Shown: positions 35,946-36,179, counted from the first letter of the stretch. The stretch: DNA of 64,000 nucleotides from Betaproteobacteria bacterium HGW-Betaproteobacteria-3 (GCA_002842205.1 PHCI01000010.1:28460-92459); one strand, 5' to 3'. Numbers and translations: made by a program. Notes: generated by a model from the sequence alone, not told the origin.

Positions 35946-36179
35946 ATGGCCCACCGAGGTTTCTTCAACGCATTCAACGACGTCTGGCTGCTCGACGGCG
36001 TGCGCACCCCCATGGTCGATTACTGTGGCGCGCTGGGTCACATCTCGCCCACCGACCTGGGCATCAAGGTCGCGCGCGAGGCCCTGCGGCGCTCGGGCCT
36101 GCGTTATGGCATTGCCAGCGCCTGCGTGGGCGGCGGCCAGGGCATTGCGCTGCGGATCGAAAACGCCAAAGCGGTCTGA
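35946..36179 (+). pseudogene. Internally deleted thiolase (acetyl-CoA acyltransferase) relic, 77 codons, in frame
   Basis: A thiolase N-terminus (DVWLLDGVRTPMVDYCGALGHISPTDLGIKVAREALRRSG) is joined directly to a thiolase C-terminus (YGIASACVGGGQGIALRIENAKAV). About 300 central residues, including the nucleophilic Cys region, are missing. Confidence 0.75.

Follow-up and report, generated by a model that had tools for sequence, protein, structure and literature searches.

An internally deleted thiolase gene in a putative hydroxycinnamate operon of a betaproteobacterium, and repeated loss of the same gene in related operons

Background

The closest described systems are the cou genes of Rhodococcus jostii RHA1 (CouL, CouO and CouR) and the SpG8-1b cluster of Agrobacterium fabrum (Atu1415-1417, Atu1421 and HcaR). 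[quoted passage not shown] In A. fabrum this role falls to Atu1421, which follows Atu1416, Atu1417 and Atu1415 (PMC7797058; bioRxiv 10.1101/160747).

The locus analyzed here lies within 64,000 nucleotides of Betaproteobacteria bacterium HGW-Betaproteobacteria-3 (GCA_002842205.1 PHCI01000010.1:28460-92459), a stretch that we refer to as the window. Shared with the Cou and SpG8-1b systems are the acyl-CoA ligase, enoyl-CoA hydratase, short-chain dehydrogenase (SDR), candidate Amidohydro_2 hydrolase, MarR-family regulator and acyl-CoA dehydrogenase (ACAD). Unlike those systems, the Hydrogenophaga-type operon also had a thiolase, a 4-hydroxybenzoyl-CoA thioesterase and a Liv-type ABC importer, and in the window the thiolase has been deleted down to a 77-codon open reading frame (ORF).

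Results and Discussion

The operon and its thiolase remnant

The features of the locus are listed in Table 1. The hydratase, ligase, SDR, thioesterase, importer, ACAD and MarR genes are all intact ORFs with full-length domain matches, in agreement with a sequence-only reading of the window that had described the neighboring pathway genes as apparently intact and the operon as an otherwise complete one of the beta-oxidation type. Pfam and NCBIfam searches place the ligase, hydratase, SDR and MarR regulator together in the cluster, which is the Cou/SpG8-1b gene set, and the same set is found in an annotated plasmid cluster of Rhizobium sp. Q54 that includes a "feruloyl-CoA synthase". The ligase stop codon lies 14 nt upstream of the ATG of the remnant.

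Table 1. Coordinates of the operon, its thiolase remnant and the adjoining genes in the window
Feature	Position	Strand	Basis
Second acyl-CoA synthetase (CoA ligase), co-oriented with the amidohydrolase gene	30367..32235	-	Domain matches
Amidohydro_2 gene, CouO/Atu1421-like candidate, divergent from the operon	32232..33107	-	Amidohydro_2, full length
Enoyl-CoA hydratase (crotonase), first gene of the operon	33224..34006	+	Pfam/NCBIfam
Acyl-CoA ligase, feruloyl/hydroxycinnamoyl-CoA-synthase-like (PRK12582 type)	34003..35931	+	Domain matches
Thiolase relic (P0001), 77 codons, ATG to TGA	35946..36179	+	Translation, Pfam and alignment to intact ortholog
Deletion junction, 15-nt imperfect direct repeat CTGCGGCGCTCGGGC	36084..36098	+	Alignment to intact sister gene
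SDR, 3-hydroxyacyl-CoA dehydrogenase candidate (Atu1415-like role)	36202..36966	+	Domain match
Hotdog thioesterase, 4-hydroxybenzoyl-CoA thioesterase type, Asp17 motif kept	36977..37408	+	Domain and structure-sequence match
Liv-type ABC importer (binding protein, permease, fused permease-ATPase, ATPase)	37455..42210	+	Domain matches
Acyl-CoA dehydrogenase, 600 aa	42207..44009	+	Domain matches
MarR-family regulator, end of the island	44040..44558	+	Domain match

Alignment to the sister gene described below showed that the ORF consists of the N-terminal ~49-51 codons of a thiolase joined in frame to the last ~26-28, so that its product has a thiolase-like start (MAHRGFFNAFNDVWLLDGVRTPMVDYCGALGHISPTDLGIKVAREALRRSG) and a thiolase-like end (LRYGIASACVGGGQGIALRIENAKAV). 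Translation and the intact sister gene thus agree with the description of an in-frame, internally deleted relic with both native termini kept. The earlier estimate of about 300 lost residues was right as to the loss itself and too low as to its size, which is 339 codons. As had also been noted, the acyl-accepting cysteine is gone: its motif, RICGTG at about residue 99 of the intact ortholog, falls within the deleted codons. The catalytic histidine of the GHP motif is missing as well, the retained C-terminal piece beginning downstream of it, while the C-terminal catalytic cysteine motif CxGGGxG is retained as SACVGGGQG at residues 58-66.

A Pfam search of the 77-amino acid product found no match to Thiolase_N (PF00108); the only match was to the last 28 positions of Thiolase_C (positions 95-122, at relic residues 45-72), with a score of 21 bits that is below the 27-bit gathering cut-off. 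Compared with thiolases (PF00108 plus PF02803), the two pieces correspond exactly to the N- and C-termini, SACVGGGQG included, but 339 of 415 codons, the acyl-accepting cysteine and the GHP histidine are lacking. Judged by what it encodes, the ORF cannot be a thiolase. AlphaFold2, run on the single sequence, predicted no confident fold (mean pLDDT 50.8, pTM 0.41), which is weak evidence.

Parent gene and deletion junction

A DNA search of relatives identified an intact 415-amino acid thiolase at the same place, after the orthologous ligase and before the SDR, in a sister genome of the same genus (G001), where the gene spans two contigs that overlap by 30 nt. It carries the RICGTG cysteine, the GHP histidine and SACVGGGQG, and the best solved relatives of the intact ortholog are the mitochondrial 3-ketoacyl-CoA thiolase 4c2j and BktB 4w61. 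The loss in the window amounts to exactly 1017 nt (339 codons) when measured against the intact genes of G001 and G012, and to 338 codons against that of G037.

The junction falls within the imperfect direct repeat of Table 1, whose copies in G001 are CTCCGGCGCGCAGGC on the N side and CTGCAACGCTCGGGC on the C side and encode the similar peptides ..LRRAG.. and ..LQRSG.., respectively. The window resembles the N-side copy through the CGG at 36087-36089 and the C-side copy from the TCG at 36093-36095 onward; therefore the crossover lies within the CGC at 36090-36092. The sequence-only reading had placed the junction between RRSG and LRYG, which is correct to within two residues, and had proposed a search for microhomology at this point, which the 15-nt repeat supplies.

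The simplest mechanism would be one 1017-nt deletion between short, imperfect, in-phase direct repeats, the first coding for ..ALRR(A/S)G.. near the N-terminus and the second for ..ELQRSG.. near the C-terminus, which would have taken out codons ~50-388. Replication slippage or RecA-independent illegitimate recombination is the likely route. A nested series of steps, from the full-length gene through 124 and 92 to 77 amino acids, was also considered; it is possible for some steps, but a single deletion suffices for the window. The deletion is younger than the divergence from the sister species G001 (dS ~0.3-0.7) and older than that from the lineage carrying P0002, an allele 92% identical with the same junction (dS ~0.07).

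Selection on the remnant

Evolutionary rates were compared between the window and a locus with the same junction (L030), and since the junction is shared, their divergence post-dates the deletion. The relic has accumulated 6 non-synonymous and 5 synonymous changes (dN/dS 0.41), compared with 29 and 119 for six neighboring genes pooled (dN/dS 0.02-0.14; Fisher p = 0.015). With 11 changes in all, the ratio rejects neither neutrality nor weak constraint (p = 0.13 in a binomial test against neutrality). A leucine that is invariant in 29 intact orthologs has been replaced in both same-junction alleles (L414R and L414Q), and the retained segments show a dN against G001 about twice that of the neighboring genes. 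Constraint on the relic has been relaxed since the deletion.

With its catalytic residues missing, a dN/dS of 0.41 and no confidently predicted fold, the relic looks non-functional. We consider it probable that the ORF is a non-functional remnant of the 3-ketoacyl-CoA thiolase of this operon, which would have become dispensable through a redundant last step. The deletion is real and cleanly defined, and the remnant is a pseudogene of a kind already known, which implies no new mechanism or system; the modestly interesting part is its documented recurrence, together with the explanation offered by the phase of the repeats. The locus also provides an example of operon streamlining caught in progress.

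Mini-thiolases in related operons

A protein search restricted to similar lengths returned numerous relatives of 56-124 amino acids from the same operon in other Comamonadaceae, and every relic that could be placed on a contig occupied the same operon position. At least five different in-frame junctions were found in this one operon context, with losses of 339, 337 and 335 codons among them. The 92-amino acid relic P0003 joins ..ARTG to VRLTITLA.., and the 124-amino acid relic P0059/L029 joins ..LYAG to VRLTV... The 78-amino acid relic P0005/L022 lost 1011 nt at GCCTTGGGyCAC, a repeat that codes for ALGH in each of the two halves, and the 74-amino acid relic P0009/P0012 shows a secondary loss of four codons. 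The 80-amino acid relics (P0079/80/86 and L026) lost 1005 nt at a junction two codons away. Two further relics, the complex P0050 and L135 (~56 amino acids), have lost the stop codon. No thiolase relic shorter than L135 was seen; it lies on a metagenome contig and extends from 32 nt after the ligase to the contig end. Some 25 codons from each terminus share one frame, separated by a few odd codons, and the frame reads on to the end of the contig.

Public records name some fragments of 49-80 amino acids (P0005, P0047, P0055 and others) "Beta-ketothiolase BktB" or "acetyl-CoA C-acetyltransferase", which are annotation errors. Small ORFs with thiolase-like ends should be annotated as pseudogene remnants, neither under the BktB name nor as hypothetical proteins, the two forms in which public databases list them at present.

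Preservation of the reading frame

The genomes of bacteria show a deletional bias, and dispensable genes decay by slippage between short direct repeats. The thiolase remnants are like such decay in general in that a dispensable gene is removed at microhomologies, leaving ever shorter remnants and complete loss in relatives; they differ in being unusually often in frame. In order to quantify the phase of potential deletion sites, we counted maximal exact direct repeats separated by 150 nt or more in 30 intact orthologs, whose mean GC3 is 0.80. The share of repeats in phase rose with repeat length, from 68% at 7 nt or more and 75% at 8 nt or more to 83% at 9, 90% at 10 and 94-100% at 11-12 nt or more. 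Because the repeats lie mostly in codon phase, repeat-mediated deletions in the thiolase gene are expected to be in frame, and the frequency of in-frame remnants follows from this bias in a GC3-rich gene. Nearly all repeats able to seed a deletion would share the codon phase, and selection on the peptide would be unnecessary to keep the frame. The view that a clean deletion in frame deserves more attention than ordinary decay does is not upheld, given that 83-100% of the repeats of at least 9 nt are in phase. For the same reason, the mere fact that an internal deletion in a GC-rich gene is in frame does not in itself point to selection.

The query used to find the relics was a fused protein, which favors in-frame cases. 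Two unbiased locus samples (80 species genomes and 80 metagenome contigs) contained one further in-frame relic (L135), one disrupted thiolase (L142), one out-of-frame SDR relic (L153) and many complete losses. In L142 the thiolase, which is intact for about 160 codons, gives way from ~500 nt after the ligase stop to unrelated AT-rich sequence; this looks like a gene disrupted by inserted foreign DNA, another route of inactivation. In L153 the relic is that of an SDR, situated ~60-400 nt after the ligase stop and reduced by an out-of-frame internal deletion to its first 9 codons (MNIQGQAAL) and residues 218-241 in different frames.

It is conceivable that the frame was instead selected for translation through the spacer, with the translated 77-codon ORF preventing Rho-dependent polarity or keeping translational coupling, so that only in-frame deletions would survive between the ligase and the SDR, thioesterase and transporter genes, or that the fusion peptide has some small role. 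Such selection would fit with the observations that the well-resolved partial thiolase relics are all in frame with a native start and mostly a native stop, that the relic has survived about 7% of synonymous divergence, and that no promoter-like or terminator-like site was found between the ligase and the SDR. We nevertheless regard it as unlikely. In-frame junctions in 83-100% of cases are expected from the phase bias of the repeats alone, and the query itself was biased toward in-frame relics. The SDR has its own ribosome-binding site (AAGGAA) and starts 22 nt past the relic stop codon. Six of the operons in the census below have fully deleted the thiolase and retain spacers of 21-40 nt, relics L135 and P0050 lack a stop codon, and the SDR relic L153, from an operon of this family, is not in frame. 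Were selection of the remnants real, it would mean that dispensable operon genes are whittled down stepwise in frame rather than frameshifted.

Census of related operons

The architecture downstream of the ligase was recorded in 80 species genomes. The order ligase-thiolase-SDR-thioesterase was present at 22 loci, plus two in which the thiolase is cut by the contig end. Six loci had thiolase and thioesterase with the SDR absent, and six had SDR and thioesterase with the thiolase absent. The largest group, with 30 loci, had the SDR and neither thiolase nor thioesterase; 11 had none of the three next to the ligase, and three were not assigned. No partial thiolase relic occurred in this 80-genome census. 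On the ligase tree the thiolase-bearing operons form one clade of 41 rows (SH-aLRT 97), within which the thiolase has been lost at least five times, and at least eight changes of thiolase state are required over the whole tree. The association of thiolase with thioesterase is largely that of one clade, and a comparison of phylogenetically independent pairs was without power.

The last step of the pathway

The gene content suggests that the operon encodes a CoA-dependent beta-oxidative deacetylation pathway of the Cou/SpG8-1b type, with hydroxycinnamates as the presumed substrates. The ligase, hydratase and SDR dehydrogenase would act in turn, after which a CouO/Atu1421-like amidohydrolase would cleave the beta-ketoacyl-CoA to the aromatic acid. 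The candidate for this last enzyme is the Amidohydro_2 gene divergent from the operon, which the sequence-only reading had passed over. Its product is 59.8% identical to a Rhizobium sp. protein encoded in a cluster of ACAD-SDR-feruloyl-CoA synthase / hydratase-MarR-hydrolase, and a Rhizobacter protein with 84% identity shares its name with the Rhizobium homolog; the link to CouO and Atu1421 is drawn from annotated homologs and cluster content. On this basis we assign it as a putative CouO/Atu1421-like beta-ketoacyl-CoA hydrolase that could provide a thiolase-independent last step. The gene is under strong constraint in the lineage of the window (dN/dS 0.057).

Direct cleavage by the amidohydrolase would make the branch through thiolase and 4-hydroxybenzoyl-CoA thioesterase redundant, and its presence is the most likely reason why the thiolase was dispensable here. 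The most economical reading is that the operon carried two routes from beta-ketoacyl-CoA to aromatic acid, of which the one through thiolase and thioesterase is being lost. In related Comamonadaceae the operon thiolase has been lost repeatedly; what is left is a relic with another junction, a copy disrupted by an insertion, or nothing at all. An amidohydrolase gene was present in 26 of the 29 thiolase-less SDR-only operons whose upstream region was sufficiently covered. Redundancy with this enzyme cannot account for thiolase loss in general, because three thiolase-less SDR-thioesterase operons (L048, L063 and L066) have no amidohydrolase gene within the fetched locus. Several of the SDR-thioesterase lineages look long-lived, so that the thioesterase can have a role without an operon thiolase. 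It is also possible that thiolysis is provided in trans, as the genome encodes seven other intact thiolases, the best of them 42% identical to the operon type. For the hydroxycinnamate operons of Comamonadaceae the last step appears interchangeable, thiolase plus thioesterase or a CouO-like hydrolase, which bears on the prediction and engineering of the catabolism of lignin-derived aromatics.

The sequence-only reading had raised another explanation, namely that the pathway was rewired after thiolase loss so that the adjacent thioesterase hydrolyzes the 3-ketoacyl-CoA. The beta-keto acid would then lose CO2. Operons with ligase, SDR and thioesterase and no thiolase do exist in several lineages, and the three just named lack the amidohydrolase gene in the fetched locus, both of which are compatible with such rewiring. 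However, the enzyme aligns over its full length (residues 7-142; E 3.7e-36) to the 4-hydroxybenzoyl-CoA thioesterase of Pseudomonas sp. CBS3 (PDB 1bvq/1lo7), with about half of its residues identical and the FGDCDPAGIV motif with catalytic Asp17 unchanged. The context differs, being 4-chlorobenzoate dehalogenation in CBS3 and hydroxycinnamate side-chain shortening here. An enzyme of the 4-hydroxybenzoyl-CoA type would therefore fit the step after thiolysis rather than replace the thiolase. Constraint on the thioesterase is moreover relaxed in the lineage of the window (5 non-synonymous to 4 synonymous changes against L030, dN/dS 0.37; Fisher p = 0.024 compared with the neighboring genes), the thioesterase is missing together with the thiolase in 30 of the 80 operons, and a simpler route is available through the CouO-like hydrolase, whose gene is intact and strongly constrained. 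Taken together, these data make rewiring through the thioesterase quite improbable, and redundancy with the amidohydrolase remains our preferred explanation for the window.

The relaxation of the thioesterase since the thiolase deletion suggests that it may be the next gene to decay.

A small protein or an assembly error

The sequence-only reading had named two findings that would count against a deletion relic, one of them a conserved, independent family of homologous proteins of 70-80 amino acids. Homologs do exist, and a functional small protein with a residual structural or regulatory role, belonging to a conserved family of 56-124 amino acids, would explain both the presence of homologous small ORFs at the same operon position in many metagenomes and the low dN/dS of 0.084 between L022 and L026. 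We rejected such a family, since there are at least five junction types that retain different parts of the parent, which leaves no common architecture; the mini-thiolases are therefore independent relics, and the relic interpretation was strengthened by the comparison. L022 and L026 are sisters on the ligase tree, but one retains the N-side and the other the C-side sequence at the junction. Their deletions are thus independent, and the low ratio mostly reflects divergence that accrued while the gene was intact.

Alleles that share a junction show relaxed constraint, with changes at positions invariant in thiolases. Among the older relics, P0079/80/86 show 7 changes across 40 columns in which the 29 intact orthologs do not vary, including GHP to GHR, SAC to STC and GGGQG to GGGQC. 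The N- and C-terminal pieces of a thiolase belong to two different domains of the established structure, so the retained pieces of the relic would come from two separate domains of the fold. The absence of a confidently predicted fold and the many operons without any remnant also argue against a functional product, which we consider very unlikely.

A separate observation concerns L022 and L119/L120, metagenome contigs with the 78- and 74-amino acid relics, which differ by few changes in the relic itself. Their synonymous divergence is a mosaic, with dS values of 0.01-0.19 in the hydratase, ligase, relic and SDR and, in some pairs, of 0.6-0.9 in the flanking amidohydrolase, ACAD and MarR genes. 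This suggests either a recent recombinational spread of the segment with the deletion allele or chimeric contigs.

The other finding was an assembly collapse at the repeat that conceals a full-length gene, and although the split of the G001 thiolase over two contigs indicates that the region can assemble poorly in metagenome-derived genomes, such an artifact is scarcely credible, as the exact match at the junction is just 3-9 nt and far below assembler k-mers, the junction sits within a 109-kb contig, the genome has no second copy of the operon thiolase type, and the same junction recurs in dozens of separately assembled metagenome contigs, obtained in different runs and with different assemblers, k141 assemblies among them. 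The identical 77-amino acid product is encoded on six contigs of 50-200 kb, and the assembly collection lists P0002 in 34 index blocks, with 24 contigs read; runs and assemblers differed, and the neighbors were the same in all. As far as assemblies can show, collapse is excluded.

Variant operons

The last steps of the pathway are highly modular across Comamonadaceae and beyond. Variant operons were seen at L067, L070, L072, L074, L077 and L081, at L137, L186 and L187, and at L139, L182, L183, L193 and L195; some of these have thiolase and thioesterase without the SDR, and in others the thioesterase directly follows the ligase. The 460-nt spacer between ligase and SDR in Variovorax brevis (L112) was considered as a possible thiolase relic and rejected, as it holds an unrelated 133-amino acid ORF (MSIDRIKTIRHYLKCLHD...). 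In a more distant genome with an intact thiolase (L010/L021; G037:C2), the SDR at L021 8012-8769 matches in two frames, as residues 1-58 and 75-254, which may reflect a frameshift or a pseudogene. Hydrogenophaga sp. Bin_25_3 (L039) carries, from 103 to 219 nt after the ligase and before an intact thiolase, a 39-codon duplicate of the ligase C-terminus that corresponds to ligase residues 602-640 with 85% identity.
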